DNA of 24,000 bases from Clostridia bacterium (lineage in GTDB: Bacteria; Bacillota; Clostridia; Monoglobales; Monoglobaceae). The DNA is taken from the NCBI GenBank assembly GCA_045648565.1, contig JAZROF010000064.1, forward strand, positions 8,969-32,968. Direction: 5' to 3'. Under the pieces are notes generated by a model, which worked only from the letters and a program-made list of their open reading frames with translations, was not told the origin of the DNA and searched no databases. Numbering within the stretch: the first letter of the stretch is position 1; each line of letters opens with the position of its first letter. Position numbers and translations under genes: made by a program. Of the stretch, positions 6,015-17,820 are shown piece by piece.

Positions 6015-6272
6015 ATGATGTTTTTTGGAAGAAAGCATTCTTCAAATTCATCTAAAGATGCAAATAGCTTTGCACCTTGTTTTCGCAGTGCAAAAAAATC
6101 TTCTAAAGTTGCTAATACTTCAGGCATTGTTTTTTCAATGTCTGTTTTTTTATGTATAGCTCTATGCCTAATTATAGCTCTATGCCTAATTGATATTATA
6201 GGAATAGCTTTACTAAGCATTATAATTCTTGGGCTAAGTACGAAAAAGCAAACGGCAGGAAATACTTTTTAA
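6015..6272 (+). CDS. Small membrane protein (85 aa), hypothetical
   Basis: AGGAGG at 6003-6008 lies 6 nt upstream of the ATG. The gene has its own promoter and its own terminator. The N-terminal half is basic and Ser-rich, and the C-terminal half is Ile/Leu-rich and hydrophobic (VFLCIALCLIIALCLIDIIGIALLSIIILGL). I recognise no family. Confidence 0.6.
   Translation: MMFFGRKHSSNSSKDANSFAPCFRSAKKSSKVANTSGIVFSMSVFLCIALCLIIALCLIDIIGIALLSIIILGLSTKKQTAGNTF
6156..6191 (+). repeat. Perfect tandem duplication of the 18-bp unit ATAGCTCTATGCCTAATT (x2), in frame (IALCLI-IALCLI)
   Basis: Read directly: 6156-6173 is identical to 6174-6191. Confidence 0.95.
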
Positions 6273-6291
6273 AGTTAATTGACTTAAAGGT

Positions 6292-6325
6292 TGCGGTTTT
6301 GCTTTTTCGGCAAAACCGCATTTTA
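6292..6325 (+). terminator. Rho-independent terminator (possible attenuator ahead of the long operon)
   Basis: TGCGGTTTTGC (6292-6302) pairs with GCAAAACCGCA (6310-6320), with a 7-nt loop, followed by TTTTATGTTATTT. Confidence 0.75.
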
Positions 6326-6351
6326 TGTTATTTAAATGGCAGGAGGCTAAT

Positions 6352-7146
6352 ATGAATATTATAGATTTTCATTCACATATATATCCAGAAAAGATTGCTG
6401 AAAAAGCCGTGGAAAGCGTTGGCGAGTTCTATGGAGTAGATATGGACGGCAAGGGAACGGCAAAGACTCTTTTAAAAGAGGGTAAAAAGTGTGGAGTTAC
6501 AAATTATGTTGTTCACTCTGTTGCCCTTACTGCATCAAGAGTTGAGGCTATAAATGACTATATAGCTTCTGAGTGCAAAGCACATAAAGAGTTCCACGGT
6601 TTCGGGACAATGCACGCAGACTTTGAAAATAAAATTGAAGAAATAGAAAGAGCAAGAAAAATGGGGCTTTTGGGCGTTAAAATCCACCCCGATACCCAGC
6701 TTTTTAATATGGATGATAGGAGAATGTTTGAGCTTTATGACTACCTAAGACAGGAAAATATTCCTCTCCTAATCCACTGCGGAGACTATCGATATGATTA
6801 TTCACACCCAAGACGACTTAAAAAGCTCCTGCGTGAGTTCCCCGGGCTAACGGTTATCGGTGCCCACTTCGGAGGCTGGTCTATGTGTGATTTAGCTTAT
6901 GAATATCTGGCAAAAGAAAACTGCTATGTCGATACATCAAGCTCATTCTGGATGCTTGGGATGAAACGGGCAAAGGAGCTTATAAGACTATACGGAGCCG
7001 AGAGAGTTGTTTTCGGTTCGGACTTTCCTATGTGGAGTGTTTCAGAAGAGCTTGAAAGGTTTTTAAGTATGAAATTAACGGACGAAGAAAACAGTCTGAT
7101 TCTATATAAAAATGCTGAGAAGATTCTTAAAATTAAGGAGTGTTAA
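6352..7146 (+). CDS. Amidohydro_2-type TIM-barrel metal-dependent hydrolase
   Basis: Start chosen at MNIIDFHSHIYPEK, with AGGAGG 5 nt upstream. DFHSH near the N-terminus, IHCGD in the middle and GSDFP near the C-terminus are the metal-ligand pattern of this superfamily. Confidence 0.85.
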   Translation: MNIIDFHSHIYPEKIAEKAVESVGEFYGVDMDGKGTAKTLLKEGKKCGVTNYVVHSVALTASRVEAINDYIASECKAHKEFHGFGTMHADFENKIEEIERARKMGLLGVKIHPDTQLFNMDDRRMFELYDYLRQENIPLLIHCGDYRYDYSHPRRLKKLLREFPGLTVIGAHFGGWSMCDLAYEYLAKENCYVDTSSSFWMLGMKRAKELIRLYGAERVVFGSDFPMWSVSEELERFLSMKLTDEENSLILYKNAEKILKIKEC

Positions 7147-7148
7147 AA

Positions 7149-8564
7149 ATGACTGAGATTTTTATATCTGATATAACTTTAAGAGAAGAAGGAAAGCAGG
7201 GCGGATATGCCTTAAGCTTTAAAGAAAAAATAGAGGTTGCAAAAATTCTTGACAAGATAAATGTGTCTGTTATTGAAACTGCACCTATTAAAAACGGAAA
7301 AACTGATATTTTATATCTTCATTCCGTTGCACCTATTATTAAAAACAGCGTCCTCTCTTGCCCAGTTGGTCTTGACGTTGAGGCGGTAGAGAAAACCTAT
7401 GATGCAATTAAAGATGCAAAGAAACCAAGAATTCATATAATGGTTCCTGTGTCAACTGTCCAGATGGAATATATCTGCAACAAAAAGCCAAAGGCAGTTC
7501 TTGCCCTTTCTGAAGAAGTTATTAAAAAAGCAGTTTCTCTTTGCCCTGATGTTGAGGTTTCCTTAATGGACGCAACAAGAGCGGAAAAGGAATTCCTTTA
7601 TGAAATTATCGAAAAGGTAATTGATTGTGGAGCAAAGACCATAACAATATGCGACAGTGCGGGTGAAATGCTCCCATCTGAGTTTGAAAGCTTTTTAAAG
7701 GATTTATTTGACGCTGTTCCTAAAATGAAAGAAACCCAGGTTTCTGTTGAGTGCAGCGACTCTCTTAATATGGCAGCGGCTTGTGCCCTTTCTTGTATAG
7801 GCAGCGGAGTTACCCAAATTAAGACCTCTGTTGTTTCCCACGAATATCCCCGTCTTAGTGCGGTTGCAAAGGTATTCCGCGAAAAAGGGGACTCTCTCGG
7901 TGTTAAAACAGGAATAAATATGGCTGTTTTAGATAACAGCGTTAAGAAAATTAAGCTTATGACAAGGGGCGGAAATTCATATACACCGTTTGATAACGGA
8001 ACAAATACTACTGCCGAAAATATTGAGCTTTCTTCAAACGATGATATAGCATCAGTTAAACTTGCAGTTAAAAAGCTTGGCTATGACTTATCTGAAGAGG
8101 ATAATGCCAAGGTTTTTGATGAAGTTGTTAAGGCTTCAAAGAATAAAAAAGTTGGCTCAAAGGAGCTTGATGCAATCGTAGCCTCAGTTGCTATGCAGGT
8201 TATCCCTACATATAAGCTTAAGAGCTATGTTATAAACAACGGAAACATAATTACCCCAACCGCTCATATTGAGCTTGAAAGAGACGGGGAAGTGCTTCAG
8301 GGCTTTTGCATTGGGGACGGTCCTATTGATGCGGCGTTCCTTGCAATTGAGCAGATAACAGGCCACCACTTTGAGCTTGATGATTTTCAGGTTCAGGCTG
8401 TAACCGAGGGCCGTGGCGCTATGGGCTCAAGCATTGTAAAACTTCGCCACAACGGAAAGCCATTTTCCGGAAAAGGTATTTCAACTGATATTATCGGGGC
8501 AAGTATCAATGCTTATATAAACGCCCTTAACAAGATTTGCTTTGAAGAGGAGGATGAGAGATGA
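7149..8564 (+). CDS. 2-isopropylmalate synthase homolog with a degenerate catalytic domain and an intact LeuA-type C-terminal regulatory domain (probable pseudoenzyme)
   Basis: Collinear with LeuA over its full length. Three catalytic motifs are changed: LRDGEQ becomes LREEGKQ (7179-7199), HxHxD becomes ECSDS (7749-7763), and GERAGN becomes SHEYPRL. The C-terminal GDGPIDAAFLAIEQITG ... QAVTEGRGAMGSSIVKL...GKGISTDIIGASINAYINALNKI is well conserved. Start at the ATG at 7149, with AAGGAG 9 nt upstream. Confidence 0.8.
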   Translation: MTEIFISDITLREEGKQGGYALSFKEKIEVAKILDKINVSVIETAPIKNGKTDILYLHSVAPIIKNSVLSCPVGLDVEAVEKTYDAIKDAKKPRIHIMVPVSTVQMEYICNKKPKAVLALSEEVIKKAVSLCPDVEVSLMDATRAEKEFLYEIIEKVIDCGAKTITICDSAGEMLPSEFESFLKDLFDAVPKMKETQVSVECSDSLNMAAACALSCIGSGVTQIKTSVVSHEYPRLSAVAKVFREKGDSLGVKTGINMAVLDNSVKKIKLMTRGGNSYTPFDNGTNTTAENIELSSNDDIASVKLAVKKLGYDLSEEDNAKVFDEVVKASKNKKVGSKELDAIVASVAMQVIPTYKLKSYVINNGNIITPTAHIELERDGEVLQGFCIGDGPIDAAFLAIEQITGHHFELDDFQVQAVTEGRGAMGSSIVKLRHNGKPFSGKGISTDIIGASINAYINALNKICFEEEDER

Positions 8565-11023
8565 AATTATCCTTTTCCACAAACAAGTGGAACGATATAA
8601 CCCTTTCAGAGTTTTTCGACTTAGCAGGGGAATATAAGTTTGACGGAATAGAAATCCATGATGTTTCAAAGCTTAAAGAGGCGGATTTGAAAGACGCTCC
8701 TTGGCGAATGATAGAAAGCGGAATAAAAATTTCCTGTATCGACATGGTAAAGGATATTTCCAAAGAAAGGGATGAGGCAAAAAAAGAGCTTATAAGATGC
8801 CTTGAAGTTGCCGAAATTCTTAAAGCACCTTACATAAGACTTAAAGCTCTTTTAGAAGAAGGGGTTGAGGAGTTTTTAAGAGAGAACCTTTCTCTTGCAG
8901 AAGAAAAGGGAGTGGTTTTGCTTATTGAAACCGCAGGGGTTTATGCAGATACAGAAAAGCTCCGTGACCTTTTGACAAACTTTGCAAGTGATACTTTGGC
9001 GGCTTTATGGGATGTCCACTATCCATATAGAATGCATGGGGAAACTCCTGAAAAGTCAATTACAAATTTAGGCGCTTATGTAAAGCATATTCATATAAAG
9101 GACTCTGAAAGTCTTGAAACAAAAAGCCTTGTGGGCGAGGGCAACCTCCCTATCAATCAGTTTATGGAGGCCCTTAGAAGCGTAAACTATGACGGATTTT
9201 TCTCAATTGAGTGGAATCCTATTTGGGACGAAGAGATAAGCGAGGTTGATATAATATTTCCACACTTCGTAAGCTTTATGTCAAGATATAAAGGCTTATC
9301 AAGAGGAAAATCTGCTCTGTATGACAATAAAACAAAGACGGGAAAGTTTCCCTGGAAGAAAGATGCTCTTATTGAGAAAACCTTTTCTCAGGTTCTTGAT
9401 AAAATGGTTGAGGAATTCCCTGACCAATACGCATTTAAATATACAACTCTTGATTACACAAGAACATATTCACAGTTTCGGGACGATGTTGACACCTTTG
9501 CAAGAAGCTTAATGGCTATGGGTGTCCGCCCCGGGCACCACGTTGCAGTATGGGCAACAAATGTTCCTCAGTGGTACATAGCTTTCTGGGCGACAACAAA
9601 AATCGGAGCGGTTTTGGTTACAATGAACACCGCTTATAAAATCCACGAGGCAGAGTATCTTTTAAAGCAATCCGACACTCATACCCTTATTATGATTGAG
9701 GGGTATCGTGATTCCGATTATTCAGGAATTATTGCTGAGCTTTGTCCTGAACTTGAAAACACAAAAGAGGGAGAGCCTCTCCACGCAAAGAGACTTCCGT
9801 TCCTTCGAAATGTTATAACAGTGGGCTTTAAGCAAAAGGGCTGCACAACATGGGAAGAGGCAATTGATAAAGCGGACAGCGTTCCTCTTGATGAGGTTTT
9901 AAGAGTTGCATCAAAGGTTAATGTAAACGATGTCTGCAATATGCAGTATACATCAGGAACAACAGGCTTTCCGAAAGGGGTTATGCTTACCCACTATAAT
10001 ATAGTCAATAACGGTAAGTGTATCGGCGACAGAATGGATTTATCCACGGCAGACAGAATGATGATTCAGGTGCCAATGTTCCATTGTTTCGGTATGGTTC
10101 TTGCTATGACCGCAACAATGACTCACGGGGGAACACTCCTCCCACTTCCTTATTATTCTCCAAAGCCTGCCCTCTCTTGCGTAAATCAGGAGAGAATAAC
10201 CTGTTTCCACGGCGTTCCAACAATGTTTATTGCAATGCTTGAGCACCCTGATTTTGAAAAGACTGACTTTTCTTATATGAGAACGGGTATTATGGCTGGT
10301 TCTCCTTGTCCTGAGGCTATTATGAATCAGGTTGTTGAGAAAATGAATATGAAGGAAATCACAATTGTTTATGGCCAGACAGAAGCGTCTCCGGGTTGCA
10401 CAATGAGCAGTACGGACGACAGCATTGAAGTCAGAGTTACAACTGTTGGAAGAGCGCTCCCTGAAATTCAGTGTAAGATTGTTGACCCTGAAACCGGGGA
10501 AGACCTTCCTGATAATGTTACGGGCGAATTTGTTGCCAAAGGCTATAACATTATGAAAGGCTATTATAAAATGCCAGAGGCTACTGCGGCGGCAATTGAT
10601 AAAGACGGCTGGCTCCATACAGGAGACCTTGCACTTCGCACACCTGAGGGAAATTATAAGATAACAGGCAGACTTAAAGATATGATTATCCGTGGTGGAG
10701 AAAATATTTATCCGAAAGAAATTGAGGAATTTATTTATACCCACGAAAAAGTCAAGGATGTTCAGGTTATCGGTATTCCTGATGAGCAGTACGGCGAAGA
10801 AATTATGGCTGTTATAATCTTAAAAGACGGGGAAGAAATGACAGTTGATGAAATGAAAGATTATATAAGAGCGCATATGGCAAAGCATAAGTGCCCGAGA
10901 TATATTGATTTTGTCCAAGAATTCCCAATGAATGCGGCGGGCAAAATTCTTAAATATAAGATGCGTGAAGACGCGGCAAAGAAACTTAATATCAAGAAAG
11001 TTGACGGCATTGTTGCCGACTAG
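8561..11023 (+). CDS. Fusion protein: N-terminal xylose-isomerase-like TIM barrel (sugar-phosphate isomerase/epimerase fold, about aa 1-250) plus C-terminal AMP-forming acyl-CoA ligase (about aa 265-820)
   Basis: The N-terminus (LSFSTNKW..FDGIEIH...IRLKA...LLIET...HIHIKD...FSIEW) has the AP_endonuc_2/TIM pattern. The C-terminus has YTSGTTGFPKGVMLTH, YGQTE, GWLHTGD, RLKDMIIRGGENIYP and GKILK. It is a single uninterrupted frame, and its ATG overlaps the upstream stop (ATGA). Confidence 0.85.
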   Translation: MKLSFSTNKWNDITLSEFFDLAGEYKFDGIEIHDVSKLKEADLKDAPWRMIESGIKISCIDMVKDISKERDEAKKELIRCLEVAEILKAPYIRLKALLEEGVEEFLRENLSLAEEKGVVLLIETAGVYADTEKLRDLLTNFASDTLAALWDVHYPYRMHGETPEKSITNLGAYVKHIHIKDSESLETKSLVGEGNLPINQFMEALRSVNYDGFFSIEWNPIWDEEISEVDIIFPHFVSFMSRYKGLSRGKSALYDNKTKTGKFPWKKDALIEKTFSQVLDKMVEEFPDQYAFKYTTLDYTRTYSQFRDDVDTFARSLMAMGVRPGHHVAVWATNVPQWYIAFWATTKIGAVLVTMNTAYKIHEAEYLLKQSDTHTLIMIEGYRDSDYSGIIAELCPELENTKEGEPLHAKRLPFLRNVITVGFKQKGCTTWEEAIDKADSVPLDEVLRVASKVNVNDVCNMQYTSGTTGFPKGVMLTHYNIVNNGKCIGDRMDLSTADRMMIQVPMFHCFGMVLAMTATMTHGGTLLPLPYYSPKPALSCVNQERITCFHGVPTMFIAMLEHPDFEKTDFSYMRTGIMAGSPCPEAIMNQVVEKMNMKEITIVYGQTEASPGCTMSSTDDSIEVRVTTVGRALPEIQCKIVDPETGEDLPDNVTGEFVAKGYNIMKGYYKMPEATAAAIDKDGWLHTGDLALRTPEGNYKITGRLKDMIIRGGENIYPKEIEEFIYTHEKVKDVQVIGIPDEQYGEEIMAVIILKDGEEMTVDEMKDYIRAHMAKHKCPRYIDFVQEFPMNAAGKILKYKMREDAAKKLNIKKVDGIVAD

Positions 11024-11037
11024 AAAGGATGATAGAT

Positions 11038-12096
11038 ATGGAAATTAAAATTACAAAAACAACTACTCCGAAAGCAAAGCCAACAGGCAAACTTGGATTT
11101 GGTAAGGTTTTCACAGACCATATGTTCGTTATGAACTACACAGAGGGAAAGGGCTGGCACGATGCAAGAATCGTTCCTTATGATAAGATTACCCTTGACC
11201 CATCCGCTATGGTTTTCCATTACGGTCAGGAAATGTTTGAAGGCCTTAAGGCTTATATGGGAAAAGACGGTAAGGCAAGACTCTTCCGTCCTGATATGAA
11301 CGCAAAAAGAACAAACGCAACAAATAAGAGACTCTGCATTCCACAGCTTCCTGAGGAAGACTTTGTTGAGGCAGTTCGAGCAGTTGTTGAGGTTGATAAA
11401 GACTGGATTCCGACAGAAGACGGAACATCACTTTATATCAGACCATTCATTATTGCAACTGACGAATTTTTAGGGGTTGCCCCATCTAAGACATATCTTT
11501 TTATTATAATTCTTTCTCCAAGCGGTGCTTACTATGAAAGCGGTCTTGCTCCGGTTGGAATCTGGATTGAAGATGACTATGTTCGAGCTGTTAAGGGCGG
11601 TATCGGTTTTGCGAAAACTGGCGGAAACTATGCGGCATCACTCGCTGCTCAGGTTAAGGCTCATGACGACGGCTATTCTCAGGTTCTCTGGCTTGACGGC
11701 GTTGAGAGAAAGTATATTGAAGAAGTTGGCGCAATGAACATTTTCTTTAAGATTGACGGAAAAATCGTAACTCCTATGCTCAGCGGAAGTATCCTCCCTG
11801 GTATAACAAGAGATTCTGTTTTGGCTCTTTGCCGTCAGTGGGGTATGGAAGTTGAAGAAAGAAAGATAAGCGTTGATGAGCTTATTGAGGCTCAGAAGAG
11901 CGGCAGACTTGAAGAATGCTTCGGAACAGGCACAGCGGCAGTTATTTCTCCTGTTGGTAAGCTTCGCTATAAAGACGATGTTATGCTTATAAACAATAAC
12001 GAAATCGGCGAAGTAAGTCAGAAGCTCTATGATACAATAACAGGTATCCAGTGGGGCAAGATTGAGGACGAAAATAAATGGACATTAATGGTTTAA
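11038..12096 (+). CDS. ilvE: Branched-chain amino acid aminotransferase
   Basis: GFGKVFTDHMF, FHYGQEMFEGLKAY, LYIRPF, GGNYAASL and GITRDS are class-IV BCAT signatures. Start placed at the ATG at 11038 (RBS AAAGGA 8 nt upstream); the in-frame ATG at 11029 remains possible. Confidence 0.92.
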   Translation: MEIKITKTTTPKAKPTGKLGFGKVFTDHMFVMNYTEGKGWHDARIVPYDKITLDPSAMVFHYGQEMFEGLKAYMGKDGKARLFRPDMNAKRTNATNKRLCIPQLPEEDFVEAVRAVVEVDKDWIPTEDGTSLYIRPFIIATDEFLGVAPSKTYLFIIILSPSGAYYESGLAPVGIWIEDDYVRAVKGGIGFAKTGGNYAASLAAQVKAHDDGYSQVLWLDGVERKYIEEVGAMNIFFKIDGKIVTPMLSGSILPGITRDSVLALCRQWGMEVEERKISVDELIEAQKSGRLEECFGTGTAAVISPVGKLRYKDDVMLINNNEIGEVSQKLYDTITGIQWGKIEDENKWTLMV

Positions 12097-12773
12097 ACCC
12101 TAAAAGAATAACGGTTTTTGCAGGGCATTACGGAAGCGGAAAGACCAATATCGCAATAAATTATGCGTTAATGCTTTCCAAGAACAGCGATAAGGTTTCA
12201 ATTGCGGACCTTGATATTGTTAATCCGTATTTTCGGACAAAGGATTCGGCAAAGGCTCTTTCGGAGGCGGGAGTTAAGCTTATCTCCTCCGAATATGCAA
12301 ACACCAATGTTGACACTCCTGCTCTTCCTGCCGAGATTTATTCGGTTTTCGAGGATAAAAGTCAAACGGCGGTAATCGATGTTGGTGGGGATGACAGAGG
12401 TGCCCTTGCCCTCGGTAGATATGTTCCCTTTATGGAAGAAGAGGGGAATTATGAAATGCTCTTTGTTATAAACAAGCATAGATTTTTAACAGGGGATGCC
12501 GAAAGAACCATTGAGATTATGAAAGAAATTGAGAGTGCGGCAAAATTCGCATTCACGGGGATTGTCAATAACTCTAATATTGGAGAAGAAACAACAGCCC
12601 AAACAGTTTTAAACTCGGTTTCTTATGCAAAGGAGGTTTCGGCGCTGTCCGGACTTCCGATTAAAATGACAACTGTTAAAAGCTCCCTTTATGACGAGCT
12701 TAACGGCAAAATAGAAAACACTATGCCACTTGACCTTTATGTCCGGCAATCGTGGCTTAAAAACAAGGAATAA
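12078..12773 (+). CDS. P-loop NTPase (SIMIBI-class, MinD/GPN-like), cysteine-free
   Basis: Walker A GHYGSGKT, DLDIVNPYF, Walker B/G3-like AVIDVGGDD, and NKHR. The start overlaps the ilvE 3' end by 19 nt, with GAGGA 7 nt upstream. Confidence 0.75.
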   Translation: MDINGLNPKRITVFAGHYGSGKTNIAINYALMLSKNSDKVSIADLDIVNPYFRTKDSAKALSEAGVKLISSEYANTNVDTPALPAEIYSVFEDKSQTAVIDVGGDDRGALALGRYVPFMEEEGNYEMLFVINKHRFLTGDAERTIEIMKEIESAAKFAFTGIVNNSNIGEETTAQTVLNSVSYAKEVSALSGLPIKMTTVKSSLYDELNGKIENTMPLDLYVRQSWLKNKE

Positions 12774-12822: not shown

Positions 12823-13026
12823 ATGGCAAAGGTTACATTTAATGAAAATTTGTGTAAGGGTTGCGGACTTTGCGTAACTGCTTGTCCAAAGCATATTGTA
12901 GCACTTAAAGACACATTAAACGCAAAAGGCTATAGCCCGGCAGGGGTTACAGACCCTGAGGCTTGTATTGGTTGTGCGTTTTGCGCGACGATGTGCCCCG
13001 ACTGCGTTATAACAGTAGAAAAATAG
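12823..13026 (+). CDS. 2-oxoacid:ferredoxin oxidoreductase delta subunit (2x[4Fe-4S] ferredoxin)
   Basis: 67 aa with two motifs, CKGCGLCVTACP and CIGCAFCATMCP. RBS AAGGAGG. Confidence 0.9.
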   Translation: MAKVTFNENLCKGCGLCVTACPKHIVALKDTLNAKGYSPAGVTDPEACIGCAFCATMCPDCVITVEK

Positions 13027-13029
13027 GCT

Positions 13030-13124
13030 AAATTTTCCCTGAACACTTCGTTTTAAGCAAAACAAACCTCTCGCAGTATAAACGATACAGCTTCGGATTT
13101 GATTTGCTTAATCAGGAAAAATTT
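13030..13124 (+). other. Long imperfect intercistronic hairpin (about 95 nt) between the delta and alpha subunit genes
   Basis: AAATTTTCCCTGA (13030-13042) pairs with TCAGGAAAAATTT (13112-13124) at 12 of 13 positions. TTAAGCAAA (13053-13061) pairs with TTTGCTTAA (13103-13111) at 9 of 9. CAAACC (13063-13068) pairs with GGATTTG (13095-13101) with one bulge. There is a 10-nt bulge at 13043-13052. Confidence 0.4.
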
Positions 13125-13171
13125 CCCACTATTTTTGGAATAGCGAGATTTTCATAGAAAGGAAGAATAAA

Positions 13172-14239
13172 ATGAGTGAAAAAGTTTTAATGAAAGGTAA
13201 CGAAGCTTTGGCAGAAGCCGCTATTATGGCAGGTTGTCGTCATTACTTCGGTTATCCGATAACACCGCAGACAGAAGTTGCGGCATATATGTCAAAAAGA
13301 CTCCCTAAAATTGAGGGCGGAGTATTTTTGCAGGCAGAAAGTGAAGTTGCAGCCATCAATATGGTTATGGGCGTTGCTGCAACAGGTAAGAGGGTTATGA
13401 CATCCTCTTCAAGCCCGGGTATATCTTTAAAGAGTGAGGGTATTTCCTATATTGCAGGATGCGACCTCCCGGCGTTAATCGTTAATGTTCAGCGTGGCGG
13501 CCCAGGTCTTGGGGGTATCCAGCCAAGCCAGTCTGACTATACTCAGGCAACAAAAGGCCCTGGCCACGGGGATTTCAGACTTATCGTTTTAGCTCCTGCA
13601 TCAGTTCAGGAAATGGTTGATATGACAGTTAAGGGCTTTGACCTTGCTGATAAGTATCAGATGCCTGTTATGCTTTTATCTGACGGAACAATGGGCCAGA
13701 TGATGGAGCCTGTTTCTCTTGATATAAGCGAAGTTAAGACATACGAAAAGCCTTGGGCAGTGAATGGAACAAAGGGTGAGAGAAAGCCAAATATCGTAAA
13801 CTCTCTCTACTTAAAGCCTGACGAACTTGAAAAGGTTAACTTTGAAAGATATGAGCGCTATGCTAAAATCGAAGCAGAAGAAGCTCTTTGGGAAGAATAT
13901 AGGATGGATGACGCCGAAGTTTGTATTGTTGCATTCGGTGTTGCCGCAAGAGTTTCTCAGAACGCAATCGACAGAGCAAGAGAAAAGGGCATTAAGGTTG
14001 GTATGATAAGACCGATTACTCTTTGGCCATTCCCGAAAGAAGCACTTAAAAAGGCAAGTGAAAAGGTTAACAAGTTTATCTCTGTTGAGCTTAATATGGG
14101 CCAGATGATAGACGATATCCGTCTTGCAATTGAATGCAAAAAGGAAGTTCTCCTCTGCAACCGCACAGGCGGTATGATTCCGACAGTTGAGAATGTTCTT
14201 TCAAAAATTGACGAAGCTATAGAAGGAGGCAGAAAATAA
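13172..14239 (+). CDS. vorB: 2-oxoacid:ferredoxin oxidoreductase alpha subunit (VorB/KorA type)
   Basis: KGNEALAEAAIMAGCRHYFGYPITPQTE, LQAESEVAAINMV and GPGLG. The roughly 355-aa alpha subunit of four-subunit OFORs closely resembles the archaeal VorB-type sequence as I remember it. Substrate specificity is not provable by eye. Confidence 0.85.
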   Translation: MSEKVLMKGNEALAEAAIMAGCRHYFGYPITPQTEVAAYMSKRLPKIEGGVFLQAESEVAAINMVMGVAATGKRVMTSSSSPGISLKSEGISYIAGCDLPALIVNVQRGGPGLGGIQPSQSDYTQATKGPGHGDFRLIVLAPASVQEMVDMTVKGFDLADKYQMPVMLLSDGTMGQMMEPVSLDISEVKTYEKPWAVNGTKGERKPNIVNSLYLKPDELEKVNFERYERYAKIEAEEALWEEYRMDDAEVCIVAFGVAARVSQNAIDRAREKGIKVGMIRPITLWPFPKEALKKASEKVNKFISVELNMGQMIDDIRLAIECKKEVLLCNRTGGMIPTVENVLSKIDEAIEGGRK

Positions 14240-14982
14240 TGGCAGTAGTATTTGAAAAACCAAAGGGCTTAACTGATGCAGTTCTTCATTATTGCCCAGG
14301 TTGTACTCATGGTATTATTCATAGATTAGTTGCTGAAGCTTTAGATGAGCTTGGCGTAACAGACAGAGCAATTGGTGTTGCTCCTGTTGGATGCTCCGTT
14401 TTTGCTTATAACTATTTCAACTGCGATATGGTTCAGGCGGCTCACGGTCGTGCTCCGGCAGTTGCAACAGGTGTTAAACGCTCCGACCCTAATAATATTG
14501 TATTTACATATCAGGGTGACGGCGACCTTGCGGCTATCGGAACAGCTGAAACTGTTCACAGTGCAGCAAGAGGTGAAAACATTACAGTTATTTTCGTAAA
14601 CAACGCAATCTACGGTATGACAGGCGGACAGATGGCTCCAACAACCCTTCCGGGACAAATTACACAGACCTCTCCATACGGTAGAGATGTAGAAAAGGTT
14701 GGCTATCCTGTTAAGGTTTGCGAAATGCTTTCACAGGTTGACGGTGCAACTTATCTTGAAAGAGTTGCCGTAAACAATGTTAAGAATGTTAAAGCTGCAA
14801 AGGCTGCTATTAAGAAAGCGTTTAAGAATCAGATTGAAGGCAAGGGCTTCTCTTTAATCGAAGTTTTATCAACTTGTCCGACAAACTGGGGCCTTGCACC
14901 AACTAAGGCGATTGAGTGGCTTGAAGAAAATATGATGCCTTATTACCCACTTGGAGTATATAAGGACAAGACAGCGGAGTAA
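14239..14982 (+). CDS. 2-oxoacid:ferredoxin oxidoreductase beta subunit (TPP-binding)
   Basis: YCPGCTHG and GDGD...NNAIYGMTGGQ (TPP motif). Its ATG overlaps the alpha-subunit stop (TAATG). Confidence 0.9.
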   Translation: MAVVFEKPKGLTDAVLHYCPGCTHGIIHRLVAEALDELGVTDRAIGVAPVGCSVFAYNYFNCDMVQAAHGRAPAVATGVKRSDPNNIVFTYQGDGDLAAIGTAETVHSAARGENITVIFVNNAIYGMTGGQMAPTTLPGQITQTSPYGRDVEKVGYPVKVCEMLSQVDGATYLERVAVNNVKNVKAAKAAIKKAFKNQIEGKGFSLIEVLSTCPTNWGLAPTKAIEWLEENMMPYYPLGVYKDKTAE

Positions 14983-14995
14983 GGAGGAAAAGAAA

Positions 14996-15532
14996 ATGAA
15001 TAAAGAAATACTTATTGCAGGCTTTGGCGGACAGGGTATTTTATTCTCCGGAAAGTTCCTTGCCTATGGCGGTCTTATCGACGGAAAAGAAGTTTCCTGG
15101 CTCCCGTCTTATGGTCCTGAAATGCGTGGCGGCACAGCCAATTGCAGTATCATTTTAAGCGATAATAAAATCGGCTCTCCAATCGTTGATAAGCCGGATG
15201 TTTTAATCGCAATGAATGCTCCGTCTTTTGACAAGTATATAACAGAAGTAAAGTCAGGCGGAATGGCTATTGTTGATAGCTCACTCATTGATAAAAAGAG
15301 CGAAAGAGACGATGTTGAGGCATATTATATTCCTGCAACCCGTCTTGCATCAGAAGAAGGTCTTACAGGCCTTGCAAATATGATTATTTTAGGTCTTTTC
15401 CTTAAAAAGACCAACCTTATGACTGACGAGCTTATCGAGGCGGTTATGAAGAAGATTGTTCCGGCTAAAAAGCCACAGCTTTATGACCTTAATATGAAAG
15501 CTATTCAATTAGGTTATAACTACGAAGCGTAA
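14996..15532 (+). CDS. 2-oxoacid:ferredoxin oxidoreductase gamma subunit
   Basis: Start chosen at MNKEILIAGFGGQGILFSGK, with AGGAGG 8 nt upstream. SYGPEMRGG is typical of gamma subunits. The track's start at 14951 overlaps the beta subunit. Confidence 0.9.
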   Translation: MNKEILIAGFGGQGILFSGKFLAYGGLIDGKEVSWLPSYGPEMRGGTANCSIILSDNKIGSPIVDKPDVLIAMNAPSFDKYITEVKSGGMAIVDSSLIDKKSERDDVEAYYIPATRLASEEGLTGLANMIILGLFLKKTNLMTDELIEAVMKKIVPAKKPQLYDLNMKAIQLGYNYEA

Positions 15533-15554: not shown

Positions 15555-16106
15555 ATGAACGAACAGATTAAAGATATTGGTATGCGTCTTGCAACTCTTC
15601 GTGATGATATGGAAATTTCTGCTTGTGAAATGGCCGAGAAGCTTGGGGTTAGTGAAGATATTTATATGGCGTATGAAAAAGGAGAAATGGACTTTTCGTT
15701 TAGCTTAATTTATAAGGCTGCCGAAATTCTTGGCGTTGATATTCTTGACCTGATAAGCGGCAGCGCGCCAACAATTTCTATGTGTTGTATGGTTAAAAAG
15801 GGCAAAGGCTTTTCTGTTAAAAGAGAAGATGAATATGACTATAAGCATCTTGCCTATACATTCAGAAACAAAAAGGCAGAGCCATTTTTAGTAACTATTC
15901 ACCCTGACGAAAAAACACCGGTTATGCACGCCCACGACGGTCAGGAATTCAACTATGTCATATCAGGCAAAATGATACTTTACATAGGCGATATTTCCTA
16001 TGAACTTTCAGAGGGCGACAGTGTTTATTTTGATGCAAGCGTGCCTCACGCCGAGGTGGCGCTTGGAGACAAAGAAGCACAATTTATCGCCGTTGTTATG
16101 AAATAA
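15555..16106 (+). CDS. XRE-family HTH plus cupin-domain transcriptional regulator
   Basis: The N-terminus IGMRLATLRDDMEISACEMAEKLGVSEDIYMAYEKG is an XRE-type HTH. The C-terminus HAHDGQEFNYVISG...GDSVYFDASVPH is a cupin motif. Confidence 0.85.
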   Translation: MNEQIKDIGMRLATLRDDMEISACEMAEKLGVSEDIYMAYEKGEMDFSFSLIYKAAEILGVDILDLISGSAPTISMCCMVKKGKGFSVKREDEYDYKHLAYTFRNKKAEPFLVTIHPDEKTPVMHAHDGQEFNYVISGKMILYIGDISYELSEGDSVYFDASVPHAEVALGDKEAQFIAVVMK

Positions 16107-16134: not shown

Positions 16135-17820
16135 ATGGCAATATATGAAAAATTTGTGGGTGCAACGAGGGATGATTTTATCTCACTTAAAGATGCCCAG
16201 AAAAACTATACGCTAAGCTACAACGATGATTTTAACTTCGCTTATGATGTTGTTGACGAGCTTGGCAAAACAAAACCCGATAAGCTGGCTATGCTTTGGG
16301 TTTCAAAGGACGGCGAAGAAAAGAGATTTACTTTCGCCGATATGATGTATTATTCAAATAAAGCGGCAAGTTACTTTAACTATATGGGAATTCGCAAGGG
16401 CGACAAGGTTATGCTTGTTTTAAAGAGAAGCTATTATTTCTGGTTCTGTATTTTAGGGCTTCATAAAATCGGAGCAGTTGTTGTTCAGGCGACCAATATG
16501 CTTAAAGCGAAAGATTATGTCTATCGGTGCAACGCAGGAAAAATAAAGGCTGTTGTTGTGACGGGAGACGGAATGGAAACTGAGTATTTTGACGAGGGCG
16601 AAGGACAATACGAAACAATCGAAAAGAAATTCGTTCTTGGTCATAAAAAAGCAGGAGATGACTGGATTGACTTTGAAGCGGGTTTTGAACTTGCTAACCC
16701 TGACTGGCAAAGACCAACAGGGGACCAGGCGGTTATGGCGGACGATATGATGCTTATGGCGTTCTCTTCAGGAACATCAGGCTATCCGAAAATCATTACC
16801 CATAACTTTAAATACCCTCTCGGTCATATTATGACTGGTGTGTTCTGGCACAGAGTTATTGATGGCGGACTTCATTTTACAATTTCCGACACAGGCTGGC
16901 TCAAATCCCTCTGGGGCAAGATTTACGGCCAGTGGTTCGGGGAAAGTGCGGTTTTGGTTTATGATTTTGACAAGTTTGACGCAAAGGATATTTTAAGCAA
17001 ACTTGAAAAATACAAAGTAACAACTTTCTGCGTTCCGCCGACTATGTATAGAATGCTTCTTGAAAACGATGTAAGTAAGTATGATTTATCTTCTCTTACT
17101 CATTGCTGCACAGCAGGAGAGGCATTAAACCCTGAAATCTATAATAACTGGCTTAAAGCCACAGGGCTTAAGCTTTACGAGGGTTTTGGTCAGACCGAAA
17201 CAACCCTTTGTATAGCGACAATTTATCCTTGGTCAGAGCCAAATCCTGGGGCAATCGGCTTCCCTGTTCCGGGCTATGATGTGCATATTTTAGGAGAGGA
17301 CGGAGAGTCCTGCCCAAGAGGTGCAACAGGGGAAATCTGTATAAGAGTGTTAAGTCAGGCACGTAAAACCTGCGGACTTTTGGATACTTATAATTTCAGC
17401 GAGGAGGATACAAAAAAAGCCCTCCACGATGGTTTTTATCATACGGGGGACACAGCGTATCGCGACGAAAAGGGAACTTTCTGCTATGTTGGACGAAATG
17501 ATGATGTTATTAAATCCTCAGGTTACAGAATCGGGCCTTTTGAAATTGAAAGCGTTATGCTTGAACATCCTGCGGTAAAGGAAGTTGCGGTAACAGGTGT
17601 TCCTGACCCAATCCGTGGTTTTGCGGTTAAGGCAACGGTTGTTCTTTCGGATAAATACTTCCCGTCAGATGAACTTACAAAAGAGCTTCAAAAGTATGTT
17701 AAGGATAACACAGCACCATATAAATACCCGAGAGTGGTTGAATATGTTGATGCTCTTCCAAAAACCTTTAACGGTAAAATAAGAAGAAGCGAAATACGCG
17801 ACAAAGATACATTGGTATAA
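16135..17820 (+). CDS. AMP-forming medium/short-chain acyl-CoA synthetase (MACS/ACSM-like)
   Basis: FNFAYDVVD, FSSGTSGYPK, YEGFGQTE, YHTGD and SSGYRIGPFEIES, with the C-terminal NGKIRR catalytic Lys motif. Confidence 0.85.
   Translation: MAIYEKFVGATRDDFISLKDAQKNYTLSYNDDFNFAYDVVDELGKTKPDKLAMLWVSKDGEEKRFTFADMMYYSNKAASYFNYMGIRKGDKVMLVLKRSYYFWFCILGLHKIGAVVVQATNMLKAKDYVYRCNAGKIKAVVVTGDGMETEYFDEGEGQYETIEKKFVLGHKKAGDDWIDFEAGFELANPDWQRPTGDQAVMADDMMLMAFSSGTSGYPKIITHNFKYPLGHIMTGVFWHRVIDGGLHFTISDTGWLKSLWGKIYGQWFGESAVLVYDFDKFDAKDILSKLEKYKVTTFCVPPTMYRMLLENDVSKYDLSSLTHCCTAGEALNPEIYNNWLKATGLKLYEGFGQTETTLCIATIYPWSEPNPGAIGFPVPGYDVHILGEDGESCPRGATGEICIRVLSQARKTCGLLDTYNFSEEDTKKALHDGFYHTGDTAYRDEKGTFCYVGRNDDVIKSSGYRIGPFEIESVMLEHPAVKEVAVTGVPDPIRGFAVKATVVLSDKYFPSDELTKELQKYVKDNTAPYKYPRVVEYVDALPKTFNGKIRRSEIRDKDTLV

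Follow-up and report, generated by a model that had tools for sequence, protein, structure and literature searches.

A TIM barrel–acyl-CoA ligase fusion widespread among gut and rumen Clostridia, with a likely connection to leucine supply

Why would an acyl-coenzyme A (acyl-CoA) ligase carry a xylose isomerase-like triosephosphate isomerase (TIM) barrel at its N-terminus, and which acid would such a protein activate? These questions are raised by a stretch of 24,000 nucleotides from a Clostridia bacterium of the Monoglobaceae (GenBank assembly GCA_045648565.1, contig JAZROF010000064.1, positions 8,969 to 32,968; the whole stretch is called the window here), in which both domains are encoded by a single open reading frame (ORF) at 8561..11023 on the plus strand, the strand of every gene of the window cluster described below. 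The initial annotation of this locus had read the fusion as a sign of channeling between an isomerization, epimerization, or dehydration step and CoA thioesterification of a carboxylate. Our analysis confirms the observation, supports that interpretation only in part, and points to a tie between the ligase and leucine supply. With measured confidence, we lean toward a reading in which the fusion activates isovalerate for leucine synthesis via reductive carboxylation and the barrel is a conserved accessory domain with a non-catalytic shared role.

The frame runs through 820 codons with no internal stops, and the 820-residue product has the layout that the initial annotation had given it, namely an AP_endonuc_2-type barrel over residues 1 to about 250, a linker, and a complete adenylate-forming ligase. 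The barrel (residues 1–245, 8561..9295) is matched by Pfam family AP_endonuc_2 (PF01261) at residues 19–219 with 68.5 bits against a cut-off of 31.1. The ligase, which with its stop codon occupies 9371..11023, is matched by AMP-binding (PF00501) at residues 281–669 with 304 bits against 29.9 and by AMP-binding_C (PF13193) at residues 720–795 with 67.8 bits against 24.5. All of the core motifs can be read in the translation: YTSGTTGFPKG (463–473), YGQTE (604–608), TGD (687–689), the hinge motif GRLKDMIIRGGENIYP (703–718), and GKILK (794–798), which supplies the catalytic lysine of the C-terminal domain. With its domain scores above cut-off and these motifs in place, the protein is a member of the ANL superfamily of AMP-forming ligases. 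The core motifs are invariant in an alignment of 24 fused proteins, as are 233 of the 560 residues of the ligase part among 15 fused proteins from several families. The best NCBIfam match of the ligase part is PRK12583, which is covered from profile position 12 to 556 of 558 at 700.6 bits, below its cut-off of 832. Between the domains lie the linker, at approximately residues 244–268, and the N-terminal lead-in of the ligase (together residues 246–270, 9296..9370). Residues 245–252 have a predicted local distance difference test (pLDDT) value below 50 in structure models, and the full-length model has a predicted template modeling (pTM) score of 0.61. Because the second half of the linker is conserved (N256, G261, W265, and K267) and the PRK12583 alignment begins at residue 267, the variable tether is only about 10 residues long.

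The fusion is very widespread in gut and rumen Clostridia. A junction-spanning query (residues 150–400), for which an end-to-end match within a frame of 820–900 residues was required, found the fused frame in approximately 85 of 151 genomes of the order and, in the class, in approximately 150 of the 399 genomes sampled. When each species was represented by one genome, at least 597 relatives were confirmed among the 600 stretches listed. Named carriers among the matches listed include Oscillospiraceae, Acutalibacteraceae, Ruminococcus, Lachnospiraceae, Christensenellaceae, Anaerobacterium chartisolvens, and Dehalobacter. All three domains are shared by more than 120 protein clusters, at 73–97% identity, and in 14 of 14 loci from other genomes the protein is encoded by a single ORF of 818–932 residues. 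In a tree of barrel domains, one branch with 97% support parts the fused barrels from stand-alone barrels, which is consistent with a single fusion event. The stand-alone barrels exist at 25–35% identity; those of three genomes have unrelated surroundings, such as phosphoglucomutase or an EF-G-like gene, and none adjoins a ligase. Ligase-only relatives at 53–57% identity also sit in unrelated contexts, where no T-boxes were found, and we did not regard them as a split version of the fusion. A triple fusion of LeuA-like protein, barrel, and ligase was also sought among longer proteins and not found, which is weak evidence. A literature search returned no paper on a TIM barrel–acyl-CoA ligase architecture or on acyl-CoA ligases under T-box control. 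An N-terminal barrel on an acyl-CoA ligase appears to be unprecedented and is widely conserved among the sequences compared.

A clue to the substrate comes from the regulation of the fusion in relatives. Rfam T-box leaders lie just upstream of the operon of LeuA-like gene and fusion in three loci (L014, L064, and L082; 114–124 bits) and directly upstream of fusions without a LeuA-like gene in two more (L148 and L155; 110–112 bits). In all five, the triplet that immediately precedes the final unpaired base of the specifier loop is CUC (Leu). A motif scan following a rule taken from the Rfam alignments (T-box core motif, stem I base helix, and a codon in the 3′ side of the loop) was run on approximately 140 loci. 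It gave 53 CUC leaders and one CUG leader ahead of the LeuA-like gene, while solitary fusions were immediately preceded by a CUC leader in 8 cases, and no non-Leu specifier was found at either position. These leucine T-boxes indicate the leucine branch, that is, isovalerate. The initial annotation had suggested that the fusion could define the true substrate of the operon, and a substrate clue did emerge, from the T-boxes of relatives and not from the barrel. Related clusters also encode ligase paralogues resembling MbcS, and the T-box specifiers of these genes are AUC (Ile) in 13 cases and GUA (Val) in 3. Some loci carry a ligase of either type: locus L117 has one Ile and one Val leader (8605-8862 and 11337-11600), which score 84 and 74 bits with E values of 5e-18 and 2e-15 and so fall short of the gathering score. 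The Ile leader of L064 (9644-9895) scores above it, and MbcS-like ligases with Ile or Val T-boxes also occur in L048, L055, L062-L065, L069, L071, L080, L086, L089, L094, and L101. This distribution suggests a separate ligase for each branched-chain acid.

Genes for the remaining steps of such a route stand beside the fusion. The branched-chain amino acid aminotransferase IlvE follows at 11029..12096 (NCBIfam NF009897, 511.5 bits, cut-off 307), and the genes of a 2-oxoisovalerate:ferredoxin oxidoreductase extend over 12823..15532, where Pfam finds POR_N, TPP_enzyme_C, and POR. These genes comprise a small ferredoxin-like subunit (12823-13026, a Cys-rich ORF of 67 residues), the alpha subunit VorB (13172-14239; NF005507, 544 bits, cut-off 399), and the beta (14239-14982) and gamma (14951-15532) subunits. 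In our neighborhood survey of 80 species-level loci, IlvE is in the cluster in 29 and the VorB, IlvE, and CbiA-like genes occur together in approximately 30; VorB was also found above cut-off in four of five genomes with a solitary fusion. Genes of the standard pathway were not found: no match above cut-off to ilvC, ilvD, leuB, or leuC was obtained in this genome (80% complete) or in three relatives, G005, G010 (93%), and G020 (98%), and the same searches matched in 14 of 14 control genomes. The sole leuC- and leuB-like matches were an aconitase-sized frame beside an isocitrate dehydrogenase-like frame (this genome, C29:13272-16331). Many gut and rumen Clostridia, small-genome uncultured ones included, appear to be without the standard branched-chain amino acid pathway.

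We propose the following sequence of events. The acid that the C-terminal AMP-forming ligase converts to a CoA thioester would most likely be isovalerate, or else another precursor of leucine. Reductive carboxylation of isovaleryl-CoA by the VorB-type oxidoreductase would then yield 4-methyl-2-oxopentanoate, from which IlvE would form leucine by transamination. Leucine formation by reductive carboxylation belongs to the classical physiology of rumen bacteria, and a rumen-type salvage route of this kind would stand in for the isopropylmalate pathway that was not found. Three ligases may then serve three acids, with the fusion taking the leucine branch. This division of labor is proposed because the Leu versus Ile and Val T-boxes, VorB, IlvE, the missing ilv and leu genes, and the substrates of MbcS all fit together. 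In Staphylococcus aureus, MbcS accepts 2-methylbutyrate and isobutyrate as substrates but works poorly with isovalerate, for which its Michaelis constant is above 500 uM (PMC10026030). A search of the literature found no paper that assigns genes to the activation of branched-chain acids or describes the regulation of this step.

What, then, does the barrel do? An AlphaFold model of residues 1–260 is of high quality (pLDDT 92.8, pTM 0.89), and Foldseek aligns it with many solved members of the superfamily, including Art22, L-ribulose 3-epimerase, IolI, UlaE, and AsbF, at a template modeling (TM) score of approximately 0.77 (0.72–0.80) and 14–22% identity. By gathering cut-off and by fold the domain belongs to PF01261. 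A more specific subfamily was sought among NCBIfam models and PDB sequences and none was found, the best NCBIfam score being at most 44.5 bits against cut-offs of 200–465, and an ESM Atlas search with the barrel returned generic barrel clusters only. Judged from the model, the barrel is a generic member of its superfamily. An alignment with MJ1311 and a ligand survey agree that the Glu-Asp-His-Glu metal tetrad of the window protein (E123, D151, H178, and E217) is intact. That survey, which covered the ligands and neighbors of 134 fused proteins, found the tetrad in 80 and one to three replaced ligands in the other 54, and the alignment is unambiguous near these positions. The changes combine D151N, H178R, and E217A or S in 23 proteins, pair D151N, H, E, or Q with E217V or I in approximately 20, and consist of D151N alone or with H178K in 6, the remaining degenerate members having single changes. 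In the barrel tree, ligands were lost in at least three lineages, all within one well-supported group. A barrel without its metal ligands is therefore not what the window protein has, although it is what approximately 40% of the sampled family has.

The ligand-degenerate members keep both the fusion and a highly conserved ligase, and it follows that the function shared by the family cannot depend on the metal site. Identity across families is 28–63% for the barrel and 65–88% for the ligase, and the ratio of nonsynonymous to synonymous substitution rates among close relatives is 0.06–0.07 for the barrel and approximately 0.02 for the ligase, so both halves are under purifying selection. A universal need for the metal site is excluded, yet selection maintains the barrel, and the ligase under T-box control has never lost it. 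The channeling claim is supported insofar as the fusion is real and conserved and its barrel is selected and has an intact tetrad here; the coupling of an isomerase or dehydratase to CoA ligation is not supported for a family in which 54 of the 134 sampled proteins have lost ligands and stay fused. We would have the barrel acquired once, with a classical metal site that is dispensable across the family and a shared role that is most likely non-catalytic: it would dock or regulate, probably in concert with the LeuA-like protein translated alongside it. This role is the weakest part of our interpretation, and our preference is for a domain that serves docking or regulation in partnership with the LeuA-like protein and may contribute to leucine feedback. 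The ancestral ligand-intact forms, and perhaps also the window protein, may have had a catalytic barrel.

The alternative that survives best takes this last thought further and makes the fusion a bifunctional enzyme, whose barrel isomerizes, epimerizes, or dehydrates a keto or hydroxy acid and whose ligase thioesterifies the product, possibly with channeling. There is a precedent in AsbF and AsbC, a TIM barrel dehydratase that feeds an adenylating enzyme, and AsbF is among the fold matches obtained here. The short tether would suit such an enzyme, as would purifying selection on the barrel and the intact tetrad of the window protein, of the 80 members noted above, and of all solitary forms, which are nearest to the stand-alone barrels. 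However, members with up to three ligands missing are still fused, no recurring neighbor hints at a sugar acid or keto acid substrate, the barrel has no specific characterized relative at its low level of identity, and no isomerase or dehydratase step is required to make leucine precursors. We regard a bifunctional enzyme as unlikely.

The LeuA-like protein is the partner that our docking proposal has in mind. Its gene, a degenerate isopropylmalate synthase homologue with Pfam HMGL-like and LeuA_dimer domains, lies at 7140..8564, and its stop codon overlaps the start of the fusion (ATGA). A LeuA-like gene is directly upstream on the same strand in 71 of the 80 loci, and a contig end truncates most of the remaining nine. 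Among the 134 fusions surveyed, 99 have this neighbor, as do the 54 degenerate-site fusions wherever the flank permits seeing it, and 26 of the 35 without it have flanks long enough to exclude truncation. These 26 have no recurrent neighbor family, and in the barrel tree the solitary fusions form a short-branched group beside the stand-alone barrels, with the tetrad kept in all of them. Alignment of the LeuA-like protein with the Neisseria isopropylmalate synthase shows that the His-x-His metal motif reads E-C-S and that LRDGEQ and the substrate and acetyl-CoA motifs are replaced; scores for all isopropylmalate synthase equivalogs are far below cut-off. In 100 orthologues the former catalytic regions are variable, not merely changed, and of the 91 positions conserved in at least 90% of them approximately 60 fall in the C-terminal LeuA_dimer domain. 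Because the catalytic motifs are replaced and variable while LeuA_dimer is conserved, the LeuA-like protein is likely a pseudoenzyme that keeps its effector-binding domain and acts as a sensor. We also considered whether the LeuA-like protein, the barrel, and an adjacent Amidohydro_2 protein could together replace LeuCD and LeuB, and rejected the idea, since the active-site motifs of the LeuA-like protein differ among orthologues and there is no dehydrogenase.

Pairwise distances offer a hint that the barrel and this partner belong together. Barrel distances correlate with those of the LeuA-like N-terminal domain (r 0.88; partial r 0.67 given the ligase), and ligase distances do not do so after correction for the barrel (partial r 0.07), although part of the barrel correlation may stem from saturation, as both regions evolve fast, a point that weighs against our reading. 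That the barrel evolves in step with the LeuA-like N-terminal domain is suggestive only. A bolder extension would have a dead isopropylmalate synthase kept as a leucine-sensing subunit and docked on the TIM barrel of an isovalerate-CoA ligase, giving end-product feedback on leucine salvage. The barrel would be a pseudoenzyme adaptor in many lineages, and together with the ligases behind Ile and Val T-boxes this system would explain genetically why rumen and gut Clostridia require branched-chain acids. We offer this scheme as a speculation that may well prove wrong.

Two further alternatives place the ligase itself in a different metabolic setting. It could be a general medium-chain fatty acid CoA ligase for lipid or fatty acid use with only incidental amino acid neighbors. 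PRK12583, its best family match, is labeled "fatty acid CoA ligase family", the solitary fusions are without conserved neighbors, and the ligase-only relatives lack both T-boxes and a common context. This explanation is nonetheless quite improbable, because Leu T-boxes directly precede the fusion in 8 solitary loci and stand ahead of the operon in a further 54, and because the co-directional clustering with VorB and IlvE recurs in approximately 30 of the 80 loci. Alternatively, the pathway could run in the catabolic direction, with branched-chain amino acids being fermented and the reverse reaction of the ligase generating ATP from acyl-CoA, AMP, and pyrophosphate. IlvE and the oxidoreductase catalyze reversible reactions, and oxidation could use the same genes. 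T-box leaders, however, induce on uncharged tRNA-Leu, which is opposite to the needs of a leucine-degrading operon, de novo ilv and leu genes were not found, and the co-directional window cluster adjoins the biosynthetic genes hom, thrB, and lysC; we consider fermentation very improbable. An assembly or sequencing artefact that joined two separate genes, or a frameshift at the junction, has no point in its favor and is ruled out for practical purposes by the identical single frame in hundreds of independent assemblies, complete genomes included.

Several points count against activation of isovalerate by a ligase with a non-catalytic barrel. We infer isovalerate as the substrate, and the direction of flux with it, from regulation and neighbors only, and the ligase is nearest to a medium-chain or "fatty acid" group, PRK12583, while falling below the cut-off of that family. 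The window itself has no T-box by Rfam search, whether the gathering threshold was applied or E values up to 1 were admitted, and Rfam found nothing else in it; with no T-box at 6015-6325, this lineage must control the operon differently. A T-box before the LeuA-like gene could descend from an ancestral leuA, which leaves only the 8 direct cases to argue independently. Of the 172 T-box-motif matches, 83 had no specifier assigned by the scan rule, and the check with Rfam alignments covered only 7 specifiers. One fusion genome (G534, 92% complete) gave no VorB match, and because the genomes sampled share ancestry, their counts cannot be treated as independent. Finally, in the window lineage all four metal ligands are kept under purifying selection, which a non-catalytic barrel leaves unexplained.

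The rest of the window cluster adds a number of recurring companions. An Amidohydro_2 protein (6325..7146, Pfam PF04909), encoded directly before the LeuA-like gene, is a frequent third member of the module and is present in 43 of the 80 loci; the closest solved structure is the uncharacterized BB4693 (3irs). Downstream of the Amidohydro_2 gene a further T-box occurs at L014:11317-11565 and in L128 (minus strand, near 2304), with an ambiguous UCC/UUC specifier, and is followed by an ORF of 435 residues. Upstream of the window operon, 6015-6325 holds an 85-codon ORF with a promoter-like site before it and an exact 18-base tandem duplication at approximately 6160-6195, and a GC-rich hairpin with a T run follows this ORF just before the operon. 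A CbiA/ParA-like P-loop protein is encoded at 12078..12773 (weak Pfam ParA and CbiA matches) by a gene that overlaps the end of ilvE in the window and accompanies the VorB genes in 31 loci; it may be a maturation factor for the oxidoreductase. The cluster continues with a helix-turn-helix (HTH)-cupin regulator (15555-16106, Pfam) and a second, MbcS-like acyl-CoA ligase (16135-17820; best NCBIfam match MbcS, 411.6 bits, below the cut-off of 850), which occur together in 21 loci. A ZMP/ZTP riboswitch was also seen at L020:4598-4683 (minus strand, 60.4 bits against a gathering score of 39), a few kilobases upstream of the cluster in G035.

If the fusion is indeed the leucine-branch ligase, genome-based predictions of amino acid auxotrophy and of branched-chain acid cross-feeding in gut and rumen communities would change, and there would be a genetic marker for the way "isoacid" feed supplements affect growth. 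Two degenerate enzymes beside a highly conserved ligase, namely the LeuA-like protein and the barrel of many lineages, would also become a clear case of enzymes recycled as regulatory parts. The protein is found in hundreds of species, and the names on its clusters are no more specific than "AMP-binding protein" or "fatty-acyl-CoA synthase".

How does this system compare with those already known? MbcS (PMC10026030) is likewise an AMP-forming ligase that scavenges branched short-chain acids, as is proposed for the fusion, and a relative of MbcS shares the window cluster, with orthologues behind Ile or Val T-boxes. MbcS is nevertheless a lone ligase that feeds fatty acid synthesis and handles isovalerate poorly. 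The fusion belongs to a different ligase subfamily (it falls short of the MbcS equivalog NF047394, cut-off 850 bits, which is outside its best 25 NCBIfam matches), carries a TIM barrel, and is leucine-regulated, as judged by the T-boxes of its relatives. PRK12583 proteins give the best full-length match to the ligase part, but their family model has no N-terminal barrel and the fusion scores below its curated cut-off. The ketose 3-epimerases, IolI, UlaE, MJ1311, Art22, and AsbF share the fold and the E-D-H-E pattern of the window protein; unlike them, the fusion barrel fits no specific subfamily, is joined to a ligase, and has lost ligands in many members. LeuA is collinear with the LeuA-like partner, which keeps LeuA_dimer, the leucine-binding regulatory domain, and leuA stands behind a leucine T-box in many Firmicutes just as the LeuA-like gene does in relatives of the window. 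The partner differs from LeuA in its replaced and variable catalytic motifs and in being paired with a barrel-ligase and not with leu genes, and no leuB, leuC, or leuD to use a LeuA-like product was found. The closest parallel at the level of the pathway is the reductive carboxylation of branched-chain acids in the rumen, which follows the same route that we propose here, from acid to acyl-CoA to 2-oxoacid to amino acid.

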